A program made the position numbers and the translations under genes. Positions 30,135 through 41,446 of a stretch of 64,000 bases of DNA are shown in pieces. The notes beneath the pieces are model-generated. The model was not told where the DNA came from and ran no database searches. It was given only the letters and a program-made list of their open reading frames with translations. Source of the stretch: Neophaeotheca triangularis. Its lineage: Eukaryota. Each line of letters starts with the position of its first letter. Positions within the stretch are counted from its first letter, which is position 1. The DNA lies in contig BAAIJX010000019.1 in assembly GCA_054600435.1 (NCBI GenBank), positions 248,001-312,000 of the forward strand, written 5' to 3'.

Positions 30135-33100
30135 TCACATGAACCGTCTGAAGCCCTTCTTCTCCTTTTCCTTTTCCTTGTCGTTACCGCCGGCGCTATC
30201 GGCCATGCTGCTACTGCTTCCTCCGCCACCGCCGCCATTCTTGTTGCCATCTTTGTTCTTGAGTTTGACGTTTTGCGCGCCGCCTGTCGTTTTCAAATCA
30301 ATGGTTTCATCGTTAGCGCTCACGAAACTGCGTCTGCTTATTCTCTCTTTTGCGTCGCGCTTTTCGCGTCTGGTTTGCCGCCTTCTCCTCACTCAACCGC
30401 GGAAAGAACATGAGATGAGGTGGGAAGCGCGACGCAGGGAGTTGCGAAACTTACCACGACCGAAGACGCGGACTTCGCTCTTGGGGGTGATTTTGTCCGA
30501 TTTCTTCTTGTTGTTGCTGCCGTCGCTGCCTGCCTCGCTAGGAGCGGGTTTGGCGTTGTTGTGGGAGCTTGCGTGCTGTTGCTGGCCGTCTTCGGGCAAG
30601 GGCGCAGTGCGGTTGAAAGTGCTGCGGATGCCACTCGAGGCTGAAGAGACCATGCTCGGGTTGCGGCCGGGCATGTGGTGGTGGGGCGTTTGGGGGTGTG
30701 AGTGGGATTGTTGGGGAGGGGCGCTGTGGTTGCCGATGCGACCTTGAATTGGGAGACCGGTGGAGCCGAGAGCTGGGTGGGTGGGGAAGCGAGGGGGATT
30801 GGCGCTTTGAGATTGGTATTCTTGGAAGCGGTGCGTGCTTGTGGGGTCCGAGGTGGAAATATTGGCGGGTTGGTAGTGGTAGTCGGAGGTTTCGGGAAGG
30901 GTGTTGTGGGTGCGAGGTACGATGTCGGGGGAGCGCAGGTCGCGGACTTGGAAGTCGTCGGAGGTGATGCGCTGATTTGGGCTTGTCGTGCTGTCGGTCG
31001 GCTTGAAGACGTAGGACTCGTTGCCGGGATTGTAGTCGATCTGGCGAGGCGTGTCGAGCTGCGCCTTCAGCGACTGGTATTCGAGCTCGAGATCGGTGTA
31101 CTTCTCCAACAAACGGGTGTGCGCTTTCTTCATCTGCGCGAGCTTGGTCTGACTTTCGGCCACGGCGGTCTGAACAGCAGCCTGTACGTTTTGCTGGTGC
31201 CCGGACTGACCAAAAGGCTCGAGAGCTTCGTACCGCGCCTCAAGGTCAGAGATCTTGTCCAAGTGCGCCACGCGAGTACGCTCTAGATTATCGATGCGCA
31301 ACTCATCCGTCTTCTTCTCGCTCGACAAGATGTCGGCCTCGCGTTTCGCCTGCGCAAACTCAAACTCACGGTCTTCGTAATCGCGAATTCTGTGCTCGGC
31401 TTCCTCGATCATGCCGTGCATCTTGTGCATCTGATCCACGTGACGCTGCATGATTTCGAGATTGTGCGAGTTCTCGAGCTCGCGGGCTTCGCTCTGGACA
31501 AGAAGTTCCCTATACTCCTTTGATTCTTCGCGAAGACGGCGCAGCTCATCCTTTTCGCTCAAGAAGATCTCCTGCTCTTTGCGCAATTTGTTGTACCTTT
31601 CCGAGAGGTGTGCTTCGAGATGTGTCGAGTTGTTGCGGGTCAGCCCGGCGTCCCTACTGGTCTTTGAGCGGGAATCCATGAGATTTTTCAGCCGCATCTG
31701 GAGCCTGCGGTTCGAGTGAATGAGATTCAGATTCTCGGCATCGGCTGTACAATCCTTGGTGTTCTTGCGAGCAATTTGGCCAATGCGTTGCGAATACTGG
31801 GCCTTTTGCCACTGCTCGAAGTTGAGTTGGCTGCGCAAGAGGGCAATCTCGCGCTGAAGGTACTCGAGGTTGGTGATAGGCTCGTCGTTCATGGCATCTC
31901 CTAACATCTTGGAACTGTCGGGTCGAGGAAAGTCATCCAAACTCGGTCCATCCTTGGAGGGCGCGGCGAACTGGTTCGCAGATGGACGACCCCCTTCCGT
32001 ACCAAACCCTTCGCCAGACTCATTACCAAGCTTTTTCAGGCTATCCACATCGACGCCGGTAGGAGACTGCACGGCTGTAGATTGAGTGTTGCGCCAGCTA
32101 TTTCCTGAACGGAGGCTCGCATGGCTCTGAGTAGGAGACACACCGCGGCTTCCCGAAGAATTAATAGTAGGTGGGTCTGGGAGCTTGCCAGTAGGCGGAG
32201 GGCCCGGTGGTGCTAAAGCGGGCTTACCGTGAAGGCATAGTGAGTGGCACTCAGCGGCGACTTCAGCGGCCTCCATCTTCGTCCACTTTGGGTCCGTAAG
32301 CTCCTCCTCAATGGTGACGCTGTAGAAGTTTGGGTGCAGCAGATGCTCTTGGCGGAACACCTCGCTGCGGCTGCGAATCACAACCTGATTCAAATCGAAG
32401 TCGTCGGCACCCGGAAAATCAATGTTCTTGAGGAACTTTCTGGACTTGCGGATGTAGCTCATGAAGTGCAGCGGGTAGAGACCGTAAAGGTAGGTATAGT
32501 AGGTGCCGACTTCAGGTCTCGGGGGCTGGACAGCGTTCTCCGCTGCTTCCATCCTCTCCCATTTGGCGTCGAGGCCCACCTCGCCCGAGTCCGACGCAGA
32601 GTGAACAAGCCTGTCGTCGAAGACCACCTTCCTTTGCTGGTAAGTGTTGGGTGGGTTGAATCTCTCCCAGCACAGCAGGCGGCTGTAGATGATGAAGAGC
32701 TGCGGGAGATACGGCCCAAGAGAGCTCGGGACGTGCGGTAGCAGCATAACGAGCGATGTGAGCGCGACGGAAAGGATCGGCGTGACAGTATCGTTCATCA
32801 AACACTTGACAACTTGTTCGACGATGGGGGTCTGCGCGGCGAGATACAAGCGCGGCGATTGGTGGCGCAGAAACGAAGTGAGTAGCGTCAGGCCCTGCAT
32901 GCGAGTTGCGCCAGCCTTGATGAGATCGCTCAGTCCGTGGAAGAGATTGTTAGGCTGCTTCTGACCGAAGGCGCACAGGATGTTCTCCACCTGCACCGCA
33001 ATCTGCTGGTTGTCGCGCGCGGAGTAGTCGTCGTTCTCGGTCACGTCCTTGGTGCGCATAACGTAGATGTTCAGTAGCTCCTTGCAAAGGCTAGCCACCA

Positions 33101-33701
33101 GCACGGTATGTCCGGGCTCAGCCTCTCCATCCTCTTCTTGAACCATGACTCCCACTATGAAATCCTGCGCATCTTTCAGGGCCGTCTTGGAGTAGCCGAC
33201 GTTGCTGACGATTGGCTTCACCACAAATTCCCACCATGCTACGATGTTGTCTTTTCCCTCAACCGCGAAACTCAACTCCTTCAAGACACCGGCGAAGATT
33301 CCAATCTTCTGTGGGATGTCTCCGACGTATTTATCGTAGAAAGAAGAGAGCTCATGAGCGGCCTGGTCGGCTTCTTCACCCGTGAGGTTGCCGTCGTGCT
33401 GTTCGACGAAGTTTTGGAGCTGGCGTCTGGCGTCGTTGGGTAGCGACTGCGGGAGCTTGGGGGTGGTAAAGTGGATTTGGAGCGCCCTGGTGACACTGGT
33501 GATGCTTCTGTGTTGGTGAGTGAGGTTAGCGAGGTTGAGCTGGGAAAATGGTTTCGCTATGCGATCCATGTTTGCGCAGGTCCAGCAGCAGTGTATGGAC
33601 GCGATTGTGTAGCAGAAAGCGTAGGCCAGTGTAGATCGCGTGAAAACAAGTCAATCACATGGCTAAGAAGGGGGGGTTTTGGCGGCTTACCTCGAGCCCA
33701 T
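30135..33701 (-). CDS. TSC1: Hamartin (Tsc1); 11-nt first exon, introns 33508-33690 and 30284-30454; possible extra exon 29564-30008
   Basis: CLMNDT...VMLLPH.P..L..YLPQLFIIYSRLLCW, YTYLYGLYP.HFMSYIR and HLLHPNF, then a long coiled coil and the spliced C-terminal motif SEVRVFGRGGAQNV. ATGGGCTCGAG|GTAAGC joins in frame to RSITSVTRAL. Confidence 0.92.
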
Positions 33702-35555: not shown

Positions 35556-36680
35556 CTACCCCCCACCACCCTCCCCCTCCCTAGCGGAAAAAAGCCCCTC
35601 AAAGACCCCATCAGCCCTCTCAACCACTCCAACCGCCTCTTCCCACTTCCCATTCCCCTCAACACCAACCACCAGCCCCTCCAGCAACCTGACCAGCTGC
35701 CTCAACTCCCCCTTCAAAACTCCAATCTCCTCTTCCACTCCCCCGCCCTCGAGACCAGCCACAGAACCCCAAGCCCCGCAGACCGCGTCCAGGACTTCGA
35801 CCCACCATCCGCTTTGTCCCCGATTGCCATTCCCAGCCCCGGTCGCGGCGACAGCGATGCGCGGCCATGCGTTCAGAACTACGGCTTGCAGGGCTTTCGT
35901 CGCGGCTAGCAGAGTTGGAAGCGTGGTTTGCGTTGAGCAGAGGAGGTGTTTGAGGACTGGGACGAGGGTCTGTAAGTGCGGGGTTGTTGCTAGGGCTAGG
36001 TTGTCCACGAGGGGAGTGAGGTGGGTGAGGAGCGCGGTCTGCAATGGCGCATAGGGCGTGAGGGCGTGGAGATTGGTGATTGTGCGGTGGAGGAGGATGG
36101 TGAGGGATTTTTCTTTTCCTTTGGAGGCGGTGGTAGGATCGGTTGTGGACGTTGAGGTGGAGGGAAAACGGGCGGCGTGTAGGGCTAAGAGAGCCGGGTA
36201 GGTTGCGTCTTGGAGGGCGAGAGCCTCATGTTCCGGGGTTATGGGGGGGATGAAAGTGGTGCAGGGGAATAGGGCGTCGTGGAACACTTGGCCGAGACCG
36301 GTGCGTGTGAGGAGCGAGGGAGGCGTTACTGCCAGAAGGAAATGCGTAAGTTCGGCGCCGAGGGTTTTGTATTTGCTTTCCCAGTCATCGAGGAGAGTGA
36401 GAAGAGGTGGTACTACGAGCGGCCAAACATCTTCTACGGTTGCGGGAGAAAGATTTTGCAGACTCCAGAGCAGTAGATCTAGTACGTATGCCTCCTTCTC
36501 GCTCTTCCAGGGTTTCGTTTCCGCCTCGCTAGCACTTTGTATCCCGATCTTTGGCGGTGGTACGGTTTTGATGTTTTTGCGTCCTTCAGTGGTCACGCTC
36601 TGCGGCTTGGCCTTTGCGAATGACGGACGAATGGTAAGCTTCAGAAAGTGACTCACGAGGGCGCGGGTGAGCTCACCATT
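35556..36680 (-). other. TTI2: Tti2 (TTT complex, DUF2454)-like HEAT-repeat domain within the CCA1 reading frame
   Basis: IRPSFAK...T.EGRK...KPWK...LLLWSL...WPLVVPPLLTLLDD...LLTRTGL.QVF.DAL.PC...PP.TPE...NAWPRI match my recollection of fungal Tti2 motifs. Confidence 0.75.
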
Positions 36681-38630
36681 GCAGTCTTGATCTTGGTGCG
36701 CCTTGACCGCTTCTATGGCTTCTTCTGCTTTGGCTTGGTCTGGGTGGCGGAGTTGGTAGGCCATGACTACATCTAGCGCATCCTTCATCCAAGGGCCGGG
36801 CTTGGTGTTGAGAGCTTTGGCAAGAGCTTTGCCATCGAGAAGAGGCTTGAAGTTGTACGCTTCGGAAAGGTTTAGCTCGAAGATGCGCTTGATCGTGGTG
36901 GAGAAGTCACTGTAGACACCTGGGAGACGTTAGGCTCAACTCATAATGCTATTGCGGTACATGAACTCACGATCTGCATTCTCGGTTTCGAGAGTGGCGA
37001 CGAGGAAAGCGTAAAGGCATTGAGTCTGCCAACTGGGACCTAAGTGGCGAATGACCATGCCTATACGCGCGCGCTCGCTTTCAAGCTTCCCCTTCTCTTC
37101 CGTCGATGTCCTGTTCAAAGACACGATCTCATCGACTAGAGCCAGAATGTCCGCACGGTTCCGAATAGAGGAAGTAACAATGTCGCAAACTTTATTCGTG
37201 GCTTTTAGGCCCTCCCTAGCAACCTGAGTTGCAGCTGGAGGCGGTGCTCGACGGCCTGGTTCAGAAGGTTCCTGCTGCGGTGCGTCGCAGTAGGGCACCA
37301 GAGCGCAAATGTGCCATGCAAAGAAGCGTTCTTCGGCGCCATTGGCGAGGTTCGCAATCTGACTCGCCTCATCTTGGAGCTCGTCCTGTAGGATATTGAC
37401 CGACTTGCCGAAACCTTGTGTGTCAGGCTCGAAGGAAAGCTTTTCGGTGTTCGTGGGGTCGCAAAAGATGGTCTCATAAAGGTCGAGGTCGTCTACCAGC
37501 TGCAGCGCCATGTGCGGGTCCGGACCTCGCAAACACTTCTCCATCTCAATGCCCACACGCTCTCTGCTGATCTTGCGTTGGAGGGCATCCTTGATTTCAG
37601 CGTTCCGCATTGCTTTCAAAGCCTCGTCTTCGATGCGATAACCGAGTCTGCTTGCAAATCGAATGAGGCGCAGAACCCGCAAAGGGTCGTCTCGGAACGT
37701 TTGGTACGGCTCGAGCGGAGTTCGAATGATCTTCTTCTGCATGTCTTGATGGCCAAGATTTGTATAGTCTTCAATCTTCTCTGTGTTAATGTTGTAAAAC
37801 ATTGCGTTGACAGTGGCGTCTCGACGGAGGGCATCCTCCTCGGCGGTGCCAAACTCCATCTGTGGGTTGCGACTGTCGTCGGTGTAGGTCTCTTTTCGCA
37901 AGTTGACCAGATCGATGTCTAAGCCCAGGATAGTGGTGGTCACCGTTTCAAGATGCTTTGACTTTTCGGGGTTCGCTTCGATCTTGTGAAGGCCACCAAC
38001 GGTCTTTGATTTGTCGGTGGTGCCGGCCTTTTGGCTCTGCTTGTCGTTCTTCGCTACACCGTCCAGGCCGTACTTCTCGGGGTTGCCGGGATGCTCAAGG
38101 TATTCCTTCAGCTTCAGGCCGAATTGGTAACCGGTCATCTTGTTGATGGCGACGTCGATATCGTGGCTTGGAACGCCAAGAAGCTTGTCGCGTACCCAGC
38201 CGCCAGTAAACCGAAGAATGATGTTCTCGTTCGCAAGCTCCTCTGGCAAGGAGACTTGGCTCTCAGCAGAGGAAGACGGCGGTGATTGATCGATGTAGCT
38301 AGCCACATCAAGTAGCATTCTGCGCAAAGTCGCTTCCACGGGAGTCAGTCCCAGGGTCGTGGGTACCTGGACATCGTCCTCGACCTCCTGGATGAGGGGA
38401 GACATGTTTGCCTTGGGAATCTCGCGACTTGGAGAATTTATGCTGAATTTTCGCCTTTTGTTGTTCCTTTCTTCAAGTGGTGCAGTAAAGGCGGAGCTGG
38501 GAGACATGCAAGACCGTTGTCGACATTGAATTGTTGTCTTCCACGTGACGCTGCAAAGTGAATGTTTCGAAGTCGAAGTTGTTTGCAAACGTGAAGCCGC
38601 TCTGTGAGTCAAACGGGCGCTAGGAAGCAT
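35556..38630 (-). CDS. CCA1: CCA tRNA nucleotidyltransferase fused in frame to a C-terminal Tti2-like domain (predicted 1007 aa); intron 36920-36970
   Basis: Class II CCA motifs GGWVRDKLLG, DIDVA, DLVNLRKETY, EEDALRRDATVNA, DDPLRVLRLIRFASR and KISRERVG. Exon 2 gives the CCA1 tail KPLLDGKAL...PGPWMKDALDVVMAYQL and continues with no stop to 35556. Confidence 0.9.
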
Positions 38631-39007
38631 CCACACTCTGATTCCAAGAAGCTCGAGAAGTAGTGGCTCAGTATAACTTTCGTAATGCCCTCGTCTCTAG
38701 CTACTGGGTCTTTGAGTAGTATTAGATATCAGGATGAAGGTTCCAATCAATGCTACGCTACCTCCCATATGTGAGAAGCCGCATGGCAAGGCGTGTTCCT
38801 GGCCGAAGTTCAGCCGCTCTCGGCTGTTCCTGCCTCGTATGCTTGCGACACTTCGTCTGAATGCCCATTCGCCATGTAACAGTTGATCACGAGCTGAATT
38901 ACACTCTCTCCTTTCCAAGTACACTCTGGATCTTCACCACTGGACACAGATGACCCGCGCAAAATCAAACTCTTTCACGCTTGATCGCCGAAGACCAGGC
39001 CTCTCTG

Positions 39008-41446
39008 ATGACATCGACGCCTCCTCTACAACCCGGCCAGGACACCATCGTCTTACCTCGGACCAGACACCCTGACGAGAAAGAGAAGGAGAAGCCGTCG
39101 CCTCTGTCGTCAGTCGCCAACCTTCCATATCGCCGCTCGAATGCCTCTCTATCCACGCTTTTCGCCTCGACTAGCTCGCTCCCGACGACGGCGGATCATG
39201 GCCACTCTGGTAGCGATACGCAAACGGTGACCCCTCCCGTAGGGGGTGTCAATGGTTCCCTATTCAGTCCTCCGGCGCCTGCGAGCACCAAAGCCTCATC
39301 GCCGGCTCCTCTGGGGAAAGCGGGCAATGAGACGAGGGATGTGATATTGCAGGCTTTCTCCCCACATGTTTCCATACTGGCGTCGCCAGATACGGAGGAG
39401 CTCATACGGCACAAAGGGATTCACGGAGGGTTGTTGCAGCTCTTAAGACCTTATGGCGAGCACATACAGGGAAAGGTTACGATTCGAGATCACACAGGCG
39501 TTAGCAGATCATGGGATGATTTTGCGGTACGGTTCACTGGAGTCAAGGATGGGTTGGATAGTCCGAGGCTGGCAGACAGGAGTAGTATGGACTCCTTGGG
39601 CAGCCAAAAACGCATGTCTCTGCAGGAGTACTTCCCGGCTAGGTTGCGGACTGGTGGCGATGTTCAGCAGATTGAGGAGCTTGTTGAGCGGCATCTTACT
39701 TTTGCCGAGGAGAACTCTGGACCTGTCATGACGGATTACATGAATCACAAAGAAGAGTTGAACAAGGGTCCCGGATCAGTGTCGCCCTTCCACCTGCTAT
39801 ACATGCGCCGATTACTGTCCGGTCTTCCCCTGGTCCCCTCCGAGACGTTCTCACATCCTGTCGCATCCGTTATAGCCATATCATCACGCTCGCCAAATCC
39901 GATTGAAGAGCTTAGATCGCTGTACGCCTCTTCGAACAGCGGCGAAGATCGATTGCCGCCATGGGTGCACAATGAATTTTTACGGTACTATATCCTGATA
40001 CATGACGAAGATTATGACGATATTCGCAAATCAATGAGCCTTTACGACCAGATGAAGAGGCATTTCGGCCTTCATTGTCATTTGTTACGCTTACGAAGCA
40101 CGCAGTGCGTGCCCACGGACGACGAAGCCGTCAAGCTCCCGGGTTGCGAGTGGACTTCAGCTGCAGAGGAACTTGCTGAAATCGTGCGGCGAGAGTCTAG
40201 TGACGACGACTTAGACTCTACGCCATGCGTGTTCGAATCAGACGCCAACGCACTGAAAGCTTTAGTCCGTGAAATGGTAACCCAAAGCATCATCCCAAGC
40301 ATGGAACGGGCTTCTGCCACGTGGAACGACCAAGTAGCGTCCCGTCGAAGAGGCATCAGCGGCCGCTTCATGTCCCTGTCCAAACGCTTCACAACGTTTG
40401 GCAACCGTGGAGCTAGCGGGCCCTCTCTCGGGGGAGGCGGCGGCGGCGGCAACTACGACGGCTTGCAAGGAGTATACCGCCCCGACGCCCCAGAATCCAT
40501 TCTACGAAAACTCGCAGACTACGCCATGATGCTCCGCGACCACAAACTGGCTCAAACAACGTACGAGATCCTCTGCCAAGACTATAAGACCGACAAAGCC
40601 TGGCGGCACTACGCTGGCGCCAACGAGATGGCCGCAGTGAGCACGCTGCTAGCCACCAACAACATGTCCAGCAAAACACGAGTTGAAAGCGTCGACGCCT
40701 ACCTCGAAGCCGCCTATTACTCTTACATAACCCGCGTCAACGCCCCGTACAACGCCCTCCGCACTCTCATCTTCGGCACCGAGCTGCTCAAACTCCGCGG
40801 CGGCAGCGCCCTCGATGACGCCGCCCGCTGGTGCACCAAAATCCTTGACGACCGGCTCATTGGCCCCACCGGCCATGCTCTGCTGACAGAACGTATCGCC
40901 CTCTGCTTCGCAGAGCGCAAAGGTGTCGGCGGCCTCAAAACGGGCGAAAGAAGACGCAAAGCCGCTTTCTGGAACCTCCTCGCCACAGATGCCTGGCTAC
41001 AGCAAGACAAGACCAGCCAAGCGGAGAAATGCCTCGTGGAAGCCACAAAACTCTACGGTCTCGACGATGGCACCGTTGCCTTTGAGCACATTGCAGCCTT
41101 CCTCGCTTCTCTCCGGGAAACGGTCCGCGTCAATCGCCCAGGAATACAGCATCTCGACGTCGAAGCCGCAGCTGCCGCCGACGAGGAAGCAACTGTCGTC
41201 GAGGCGCTGCAATCAGAGCAGACCGCTCCGACGTCGCCCCTCCACTCGCCCTCTCTGCACCGCAAGAGCCTGAGTCTGGCCGCCGGGCAAATGCCGGCCT
41301 CTTCGCCAGCGCAAGCGAGTTTCGACCCCTTGGGTGCAGTGCCAAGCGCCTACGCCGAGGACGAGGAGCGCGTGCCCATGAGCCCTGTGCCGGCTAGCCC
41401 GAATGCTGGCGCGAGAGGGCGTAGCGAGGACGACGGGTTCGAGTAG
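39008..41446 (+). CDS. TRS85: TRAPP III-specific subunit Trs85 (TRAPPC8)
   Basis: Motifs ETFSHPVASVIAISS, LRYYILIHDE, MKRHFGLHCHLLRL, REMVTQSIIP.MER, WNDQVASRRRGISGRF, LRKLADYAMML.D and DKAW.HYAGANEM. Confidence 0.92.
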   Translation: MTSTPPLQPGQDTIVLPRTRHPDEKEKEKPSPLSSVANLPYRRSNASLSTLFASTSSLPTTADHGHSGSDTQTVTPPVGGVNGSLFSPPAPASTKASSPAPLGKAGNETRDVILQAFSPHVSILASPDTEELIRHKGIHGGLLQLLRPYGEHIQGKVTIRDHTGVSRSWDDFAVRFTGVKDGLDSPRLADRSSMDSLGSQKRMSLQEYFPARLRTGGDVQQIEELVERHLTFAEENSGPVMTDYMNHKEELNKGPGSVSPFHLLYMRRLLSGLPLVPSETFSHPVASVIAISSRSPNPIEELRSLYASSNSGEDRLPPWVHNEFLRYYILIHDEDYDDIRKSMSLYDQMKRHFGLHCHLLRLRSTQCVPTDDEAVKLPGCEWTSAAEELAEIVRRESSDDDLDSTPCVFESDANALKALVREMVTQSIIPSMERASATWNDQVASRRRGISGRFMSLSKRFTTFGNRGASGPSLGGGGGGGNYDGLQGVYRPDAPESILRKLADYAMMLRDHKLAQTTYEILCQDYKTDKAWRHYAGANEMAAVSTLLATNNMSSKTRVESVDAYLEAAYYSYITRVNAPYNALRTLIFGTELLKLRGGSALDDAARWCTKILDDRLIGPTGHALLTERIALCFAERKGVGGLKTGERRRKAAFWNLLATDAWLQQDKTSQAEKCLVEATKLYGLDDGTVAFEHIAAFLASLRETVRVNRPGIQHLDVEAAAAADEEATVVEALQSEQTAPTSPLHSPSLHRKSLSLAAGQMPASSPAQASFDPLGAVPSAYAEDEERVPMSPVPASPNAGARGRSEDDGFE

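Follow-up and report, generated by a model that had tools for sequence, protein, structure and literature searches.

A CCA-adding enzyme gene that continues in frame into Tti2

We analyzed a 64,000-nucleotide (nt) stretch of the genome of the fungus Neophaeotheca triangularis (contig BAAIJX010000019.1, positions 248,001 to 312,000), referred to here as the window. N. triangularis belongs to the Dothideomycetes, order Neophaeothecales. On the minus strand of the window lies a gene in which a predicted CCA-adding enzyme, the class of enzyme that completes tRNA 3' ends, is followed without a stop codon by a domain of the Tti2 family. Tti2 is a subunit of the Tel2-Tti1-Tti2 (TTT) complex, a co-chaperone of the phosphatidylinositol 3-kinase-related kinases (PIKKs). 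We call the boundary between the two parts the joint. The new element reported here is a 65-nt coding intron located at this joint, and the locus is better called a splice-switchable CCA / CCA-Tti2 gene. The features of the gene are collected in Table 1.

Table 1. Features of the CCA / CCA-Tti2 gene, in window coordinates.
Feature	Positions	Strand	Description
Exon 1	36971-38630	minus	1660 nt; N-terminal leader and head, neck and body of the class II CCA-adding enzyme (Pfam)
Intron 1	36920-36970	minus	51 nt; GTGAGT...CTAAC (branch site)...CAG
Exon 2	35556-36919	minus	1364 nt
Exon 2a	36677-36919	minus	C-terminal part (tail) of the CCA enzyme, as far as the Gly codon of the joint; contains Met598 and Met606
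Alternative intron, exitron-like	36612-36676	minus	65 nt; donor G/GTGAGC, acceptor AAG
Putative branch point of the 65-nt intron	36634-36638	minus	CTTAC
Stop codon of the spliced form	36586-36588	minus	TGA
Remainder of the Tti2-like alpha-solenoid	35556-36611	minus	own stop codon at 35556-35558; read only with the 65-nt intron retained

When joined, exons 1 and 2 form a single open frame of 1007 codons plus a stop, and leaving intron 1 in place brings stop codons into frame. The uninterrupted CCA/Tti2 frame built from exon 1, the 51-nt intron and exon 2 had been proposed in an initial annotation made from the letters of the window, and this structure was correct. RNA evidence was available from two metatranscriptome runs of one sample, with contigs at least 99% identical to the gene that derive from a near-identical organism other than the sequenced strain. 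The RNA cover is patchy, and most of the gene, including its 3' end, is uncovered. Record 2 of contig X1 fits the window up to exactly position 36919 and then carries one letter unlike intron 1, which weakly supports splicing of this intron.

Translation of the whole 1007-codon frame gives Met residues at positions 1, 42, 76, 105, 165, 258, 277, 297, 341, 363, 374, 525, 598 and 606, and no in-frame Met downstream of residue 606. The earlier statement that none follows the CCA tail was therefore borne out. Since the last Met lies inside the tail, a start codon proper to the Tti2 part is lacking. Three of the in-frame AUGs are clustered at the 5' end (minus strand 38628-38630, 38505-38507 and 38403-38405, encoding residues 1, 42 and 76). 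The same 5' layout, consisting of a leader, an MSP...KRRKL stretch and a third Met before the sequence IQEV, can be read in the relatives P0255 and P0264, from Cladosporium halotolerans and Teratosphaeria nubilosa. The NCBI model starts at the third AUG (Met76). This model is a 932-amino acid (aa) hypothetical protein of N. triangularis, MBLNU230_g2313t1 (P0001); its length fits a start at Met76, and the exon-2 translation is 100% identical to it.

Exon 1 contains the Pfam domains PolyA_pol (PF01743; E 1.9e-24, 86.8 bits against a cut-off of 23) and PolyA_pol_RNAbd (PF12627; E 3.5e-06, 27.1 bits against a cut-off of 22). P0001 aligns head to tail with the solved structure of S. pombe cca1 (9ns2_A; E 7.3e-80), query residues 140-544 corresponding to residues 91-486 of the 502-residue chain, and it matches S. 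pombe cca2 (9ns4_A) at E 1e-79. The strings GGWVRD...DID and RRD are present in the exon 1 translation and both align with S. pombe cca1; we take them to be the catalytic carboxylate motif (GGxVRD...DxD) and the nucleotide-selecting motif (RRD) of CCA enzymes. Judged by these similarities, exon 1 and the tail encode a class II CCA-adding enzyme, with CCA addition itself predicted. The alignment with cca1 stops at a point 16 residues upstream of the joint. Given that 16 residues of cca1 are also left at the end of the alignment, a canonical CCA enzyme would end at the joint.

Exon 2 matches the Pfam Tti2 profile (PF10521) with an E value of 9.7e-59 and 199.6 bits against a cut-off of 25.2. The match extends over profile positions 16-277 of 279 and exon-2 residues 63-331. 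PolyA_pol in exon 1 together with a near-complete Tti2 domain in exon 2, a result far beyond chance, is the combination that the initial annotation had anticipated, and its assignment of the C-terminal part to Tti2 holds. The nearest ESM Atlas clusters to the Tti2 part are all Tti2. An AlphaFold2 (AF2) model of the exon-2 product was all-helical, with a mean predicted local distance difference test (pLDDT) score of 84.9 and a predicted template modeling (pTM) score of 0.83, and contained a helix at exon-2 residues 82-101 with pLDDT values of 92-95. The human TTI2 chains (7f4u, 7ole and 9wjy) gave weak sequence matches (E 0.042-0.2), and the alignment with human TTI2 (508 residues) begins no earlier than its residue 219, opposite query residue 75. 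Foldseek with the exon-2 model found no match at E ≤ 0.001, and VIA-align returned generic ARM/HEAT solenoids with Z scores up to 16.8 and no TTI2 chains among the matches listed. Generic fold matches of this kind say nothing against membership in the Tti2 family, which was assigned because of the Pfam profile and the ESM Atlas neighbors.

A 65-nt intron at the joint is spliced in an RNA contig

In the initial annotation the frame simply ran on from the CCA enzyme into Tti2. The frame is open across the joint, but this description was incomplete, as splicing of a 65-nt intron would restore a stand-alone CCA enzyme. The NCBI model P0001 keeps this intron as coding sequence, entirely within its exon 2. 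Record 2 of contig X1 (261 nt) covers window positions 36676-36919 and then departs from the window for 16 letters, and these 16 letters are an exact and unique match to positions 36595-36610. The contig thus joins 36676 to 36595-36610, which means that 36612-36676 is skipped, with GT-AG ends on the gene strand. Loss of 65 nt, a length not divisible by three, puts the following sequence into another frame. The spliced product reaches a TGA codon 8 codons after the joint and is 642 aa long when counted from Met1, and it is predicted to be a CCA enzyme of canonical length. The initial annotation had regarded separate products as evidence against a fusion; one half of this was found, namely a CCA-only form of the mRNA, in one RNA contig.

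In the retained form, the intron contributes 21 residues that correspond to the first conserved Tti2 helix, modeled by AF2 at exon-2 residues 82-101. The fact that the intron encodes a conserved helix of Tti2 suggests that the retained form is translated as well, and the protein-level conservation of the intron-encoded residues described below points in the same direction.

Splice signals and encoded residues are both conserved

A metagenome scan yielded 277 pattern matches, of which 103 were confirmed. The best 80 loci were kept, and together with the window they make up a set of 81 sequences. The block at the joint was found with a strict pattern in 75 loci and the window, and with a looser pattern in the other five. 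The donor GTGAGC is present in 81/81 sequences. An AG stands at the 3' end of the 65-nt intron in 77/81 (AAG in 50 and CAG in 27), and the remaining four have a CAG located 3 or 6 nt away, resulting in an intron of 62 or 71 nt in the same phase.

As a control for shared ancestry, we used the 69 distinct junction sequences and examined every column with a conserved degenerate residue (51 columns), taking codon use in the same ORFs (open reading frames) as background. Two to six synonymous codons are used in 50 of the 51 columns. The sole column with a single codon is the Glu after the joint, which is encoded by GAG in 69/69 sequences (background 56% of Glu codons). Directly ahead of the joint, GGT is used in 49/49 sequences with Gly (background 25% of Gly codons) and AGT in 20/20 sequences with Ser (background 14% of Ser codons), and the donor GT hence survives the replacement of Gly by Ser. 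Inside the intron, a Leu codon is CTT in 66/69 sequences (background 17.5% of Leu codons) and a Thr codon is ACC in 59/69 (background 30% of Thr codons). These two codons spell CTTAC, 23 nt ahead of the acceptor, a position that fits a putative branch point, and this signal within CTT ACC is kept in 65/69 sequences. Where Gln replaces Lys at the end of the intron, the codon goes from AAG to CAG, with preservation of the AG.

Other positions encoded by the intron (Leu+2, His+9, Pro+17 and Phe+19) have a fixed amino acid and free synonymous sites, and amino-acid conservation with synonymous variation is seen along the whole Tti2 part. Splice signals that are kept against synonymous drift, together with residues that are kept through synonymous change, point to selection on the 65 nt both as intron and as protein. 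Loci with the intron span many lineages, and the intron therefore seems to be of about the same age as the fusion. Its branch point is non-consensus, and this, together with the AAG acceptor found in the window, would fit an inefficient intron that leaves both forms. Removal of the intron in silico leads to a stop after 1-29 codons in 81/81 sequences (median 4).

A separate observation concerns 13 loci (L028, L031, L034, L039-L045, L048, L049 and L080) in which the spliced frame runs for 22-29 codons and has a conserved basic end, PPRKVRRG or RPAKVRK[CR]. These loci belong to a group of metagenome sequences whose identity to any named protein is no more than about 40%. The basic motif, encoded in the alternative frame over the Tti2 coding sequence, looks like a nuclear localization signal.

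The fusion is found across Dothideomycetes

In a length-restricted search, both PF01743 and PF10521 were present in 74/74 homologues of at least 794 aa, the domain pair that the initial annotation had proposed to map across Dothideomycetes. Taxon names are known for a minority of the homologues only. The named long homologues come from many Dothideomycete genera and from one Arthoniomycete, Coniocarpon cinnabarinum (clade dothideomyceta). We take the orders represented to include Mycosphaerellales, Cladosporiales, Dothideales, Myriangiales, Botryosphaeriales and Pleosporales. Two of the 74 long homologues are labelled plant and are presumably fungal contaminants. The fusion is already in the databases as predicted proteins, and one homologue record has been named automatically after both domains. 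The earlier idea of a lineage-specific fusion was thus right in that the fusion is real, and wrong if taken to mean that it is peculiar to this genome, given its occurrence across Dothideomycetes and in one Arthoniomycete.

The metagenome loci gave a similar picture. The CCA tail and Tti2 share one open frame in 80/80 of the loci kept, and the frame past the joint is open in 81/81 sequences, with 68 running for 277-382 codons to a stop and 13 running off the contig. By their nearest named relatives the loci are Cladosporium-, Friedmanniomyces-, Aureobasidium-, Myriangium- and Pleosporales-like, and there is a further group, the one at about 40% identity mentioned above. Intron 1 is absent from five loci (L004, L009, L030, L038 and L073), in which a single ORF encodes the whole fusion, with 642-657 codons open ahead of the joint. 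Most of the other loci are interrupted about 78-108 codons upstream of the joint, as in the window.

A literature search, which did not extend to subscription journals and supplements, found no paper on a CCA-Tti2 fusion or on its splicing. A fusion with a conserved, frame-shifting coding intron therefore appears to be undescribed in the searchable literature.

Gene models disagree at the joint

Four of 137 proteins with the tail motif end shortly after the motif. The C-terminus of the 631-aa protein P0255 from C. halotolerans is identical to the spliced tail predicted for the Cladosporium-like loci, and the 632-aa protein P0264 from T. nubilosa ends shortly past the joint. P0288 and a partial model from Cercospora zeae-maydis (P0294) also stop shortly past the joint. 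Other models (P0063, P0302, P0064 and P0085) remove differing pieces at the joint, and some of them delete parts of the conserved helix. For one Dothideomycete, two transcripts encoding 882 and 776 aa share the donor and differ in their acceptors, both of which are in frame. Gene finders evidently detect the splice signals but disagree on them. Annotation at this locus is consequently inconsistent, with products that are fused, CCA-only or cut at arbitrary pieces, and gene models should carry two isoforms.

Stand-alone Tti2 proteins have an N-terminal region that the fusion lacks

An exhaustive profile-free search with the Tti2 part against 1.84 billion representatives gave 682 matches at E ≤ 0.001. 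The best 150 of these 682 were sorted by local BLAST against the CCA half and the Tti2 half. Full CCA plus Tti2 was found in 10, partial CCA plus Tti2 in 4, and a start inside the CCA tail followed by Tti2 in 33. No match to the CCA enzyme was detected in the others, of which 53 are short or fragmentary and 50 have at least 100 unrelated residues before Tti2 (medians of 543.5 aa for total length and 166 residues for the part ahead of the match). The members of this group of 50 are true stand-alone Tti2 proteins. The presence of a median of 166 residues ahead of Tti2 in these proteins suggests that the fused form lost an ancestral N-terminal region. Replacement of the Tti2 N-terminus, as inferred earlier, agrees with this comparison with 50 of the 150 best representatives, in that the N-terminal region of the stand-alone forms is absent here.

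The top-ranked Tti2 proteins of 380-490 aa looked at first like separate genes. However, seven of the nine best short matches start with the CCA tail motif, and two start immediately downstream of it. We took the proteins that start in the tail, including the 33 among the best 150, to be fragments of the fusion produced by ORF callers and rejected them as evidence for separate genes. A near-length search with the Tti2 part gave 17 matches, among which the only named stand-alone proteins were from Coniochaeta ligniaria (548 aa) and Zalerion maritima (476 aa), both of which we take to be Sordariomycetes. The same search did not find a second Tti2 protein of N. triangularis, which is weak evidence given that its word index limits sensitivity.

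One gene with two predicted products

We consider it probable that the locus is a two-isoform gene, which would give either the CCA enzyme alone or the CCA-Tti2 fusion through splicing of the 65-nt intron. An ancestral TTI2 gene would have lost its 5' part and start codon and become joined in frame to the 3' end of CCA1, with a weak 65-nt GT-AG intron at the joint deciding on the product. Splicing would cause the frameshift and the stop after 8 codons, resulting in the 642-aa CCA enzyme. Upon retention, the first Tti2 helix would be encoded and translation would proceed into the 1007-aa CCA-Tti2 fusion. On the full-length mRNA, Tti2 would be reached from an AUG only in the retained form, the efficiency of splicing would set the ratio of the two products, and the fusion polypeptide would be the working Tti2. 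All three TTT proteins are reported to be essential in S. cerevisiae, a very low level of Tti2 to be enough for viability, and depletion of yeast Tti2 to cause sensitivity to rapamycin or hydroxyurea (PMC4889661). On that account a minor retained isoform could suffice.

Several points weigh against this reading. Splicing was seen in one contig from one metatranscriptome sample, at a depth of about 4 and in another strain. No RNA record crosses the unspliced joint, such that retention in mature mRNA is deduced, and both protein products are predicted from sequence. The spliced mRNA would have a 3' untranslated region (UTR) of about 1 kb and could be a target of nonsense-mediated decay instead of a productive CCA message. 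The pattern used for the metagenome scan sits in the CCA tail, and hence only fused loci with that tail were detectable. The 81 sequences are related, so the synonymous-site argument draws on the internal control columns and not on independent counts. We dropped the early stop after the frameshift as evidence, since a stop turns up about as soon in the second shifted frame, within 5-57 codons (median 8). Lastly, N-terminal truncations of S. cerevisiae Tti2 were reported not to be viable (PMC4889661), and a Tti2 without its N-terminus therefore needs explaining.

Two overlapping genes are a possible explanation, albeit one that we think unlikely. The CCA mRNA would then always be spliced, and an internal promoter within the CCA gene would drive a shorter transcript for Tti2, in which the 65 nt are kept and translation begins at Met598 or Met606. 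The resulting protein of about 400-410 aa would have its first 30-38 residues in common with the CCA tail. These two residues are the last in-frame AUGs, and about 400 aa is near the length of the shorter stand-alone Tti2 proteins. A Met equivalent to Met598 is present in 73/73 fused proteins and one equivalent to Met606 in 71/73 (74 were examined, one of which has no tail motif). However, both lie in the conserved CCA tail, where conservation requires no second role, and the base at position −3 of Met598 is a T, a poor context for initiation. No internal transcript start was observed within the sparse RNA cover, and the models that start in this region (the 33 among the best 150) are mostly unnamed ORF calls on contigs that lack transcript support. 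Continuity of the frame through the joint would be needed for overlapping genes too, and the two Met residues are expected to be conserved in either case, so neither feature discriminates between overlapping genes and a two-isoform gene.

It is improbable that the gene is a plain constitutive fusion that makes only the 1007-aa protein, with incidental splice-like signals and noise at the RNA joint. P0001 and most annotated relatives do retain the 65 nt, and the joint is present in one RNA contig only. On the other hand, GTGAGC is invariant and was held through the change from GGT to AGT, the single-codon Glu column is unlike the other 50 conserved columns, and CTTAC and the 3' AG are conserved. 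Furthermore, the spliced product stops where canonical CCA enzymes stop, and the splice is used in gene models of two named species. An untranslated relic of Tti2 (a 3' UTR or pseudogene) or an artefact of assembly or annotation at the joint is highly improbable, because even though an always-spliced intron would leave the Tti2 frame unread from the CCA mRNA, that frame is open for 277-382 codons in the 68 loci that do not leave the contig, its amino acids are conserved with synonymous variation throughout, the Pfam domain is complete save for 15 N-terminal and 2 C-terminal profile positions, and dozens of species show the arrangement in assemblies made independently.

A two-isoform gene would place two unrelated housekeeping functions, the completion of tRNA 3' ends and the maturation of TOR/ATM/ATR-type kinases, both essential in yeast, in one transcription unit across a large fungal class to which many plant pathogens, black yeasts and rock fungi belong. 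Were the retained form the sole source of Tti2, one small intron would govern the supply of a limiting chaperone subunit, and these fungi would offer a test by nature of the need for a free N-terminus in Tti2. A bolder version is that Tti2 in Dothideomycetes and Arthoniomycetes exists only as the intron-retaining isoform of CCA1, that intron efficiency sets the ratio of CCA enzyme to Tti2, and that the fusion tethers a PIKK co-chaperone to the enzyme of tRNA 3' ends. We offer this version tentatively and regard it as doubtful. If it were true, the alternative starts might make the fusion follow the sorting of the CCA enzyme to compartments, and tRNA or translation status might be linked to the biogenesis of TOR, ATR and Tra1. 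Physical coupling of tRNA maturation to PIKK assembly, raised in the initial annotation, is speculation.

Neighboring genes

An open frame matching Hamartin (TSC1 family, a regulator of the TOR pathway) is located on the same strand, about 2 kb past the point where Tti2 ends (30396-33650, minus; 1085 codons, Pfam E 1.2e-19). Its proximity to a gene for a chaperone subunit of TOR kinase may be coincidence. On the other side, a frame matching TRAPPC-Trs85 (38954-41443, plus; 830 codons, E 1.4e-144) is transcribed in the opposite direction to the CCA-Tti2 gene. The open frames of this divergent pair are separated by only about 320 bp, and the promoter region is probably shared.

Comparison with known systems

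The CCA half has the Pfam domains of eukaryotic class II CCA enzymes (S. cerevisiae Cca1, S. pombe cca1 and cca2, and human TRNT1) and is similar over its full length to the two S. pombe enzymes. Unlike these canonical enzymes, the gene described here has no stop at the canonical C-terminus unless the 65-nt coding intron is removed, and otherwise about 370 residues of Tti2 follow. Yeast Cca1 is sorted to mitochondria, nucleus and cytosol via multiple AUGs, and the three 5' AUGs in the window resemble this arrangement. Three starts combined with two C-terminal forms could give up to six products. With known Tti2, the TTT subunit and PIKK co-chaperone, the C-terminal half, a candidate partner of Tel2 and Tti1, has the Pfam domain in common, and its AF2 model is an all-helical solenoid. 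It differs in that it has neither a start codon of its own nor the N-terminal region and is attached behind another enzyme.

Exitrons are alternatively spliced introns inside coding exons that have been described in plants and humans. Like them, the 65-nt intron is coding when retained, has GT-AG ends and sub-optimal signals (CTTAC and AAG), and changes the C-terminus as its length is not a multiple of three. In contrast to exitrons, it sits on the joint of a gene fusion, would switch between a protein with one function and a protein with two, and is conserved across a fungal class. Among the literature matches listed, in which the exitron papers dealt with plants, humans or general topics, there was no fungal example of an exitron-type switch at a fusion joint. 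A second parallel is provided by the peroxisomal forms of glycolytic enzymes in fungi, which are C-terminal isoforms generated by alternative splicing or stop-codon read-through. In both cases one gene would give two C-termini with different fates through a small regulated RNA event, but whereas the glycolytic isoforms add a short targeting signal, the event in the CCA-Tti2 gene would add or remove an entire essential protein.

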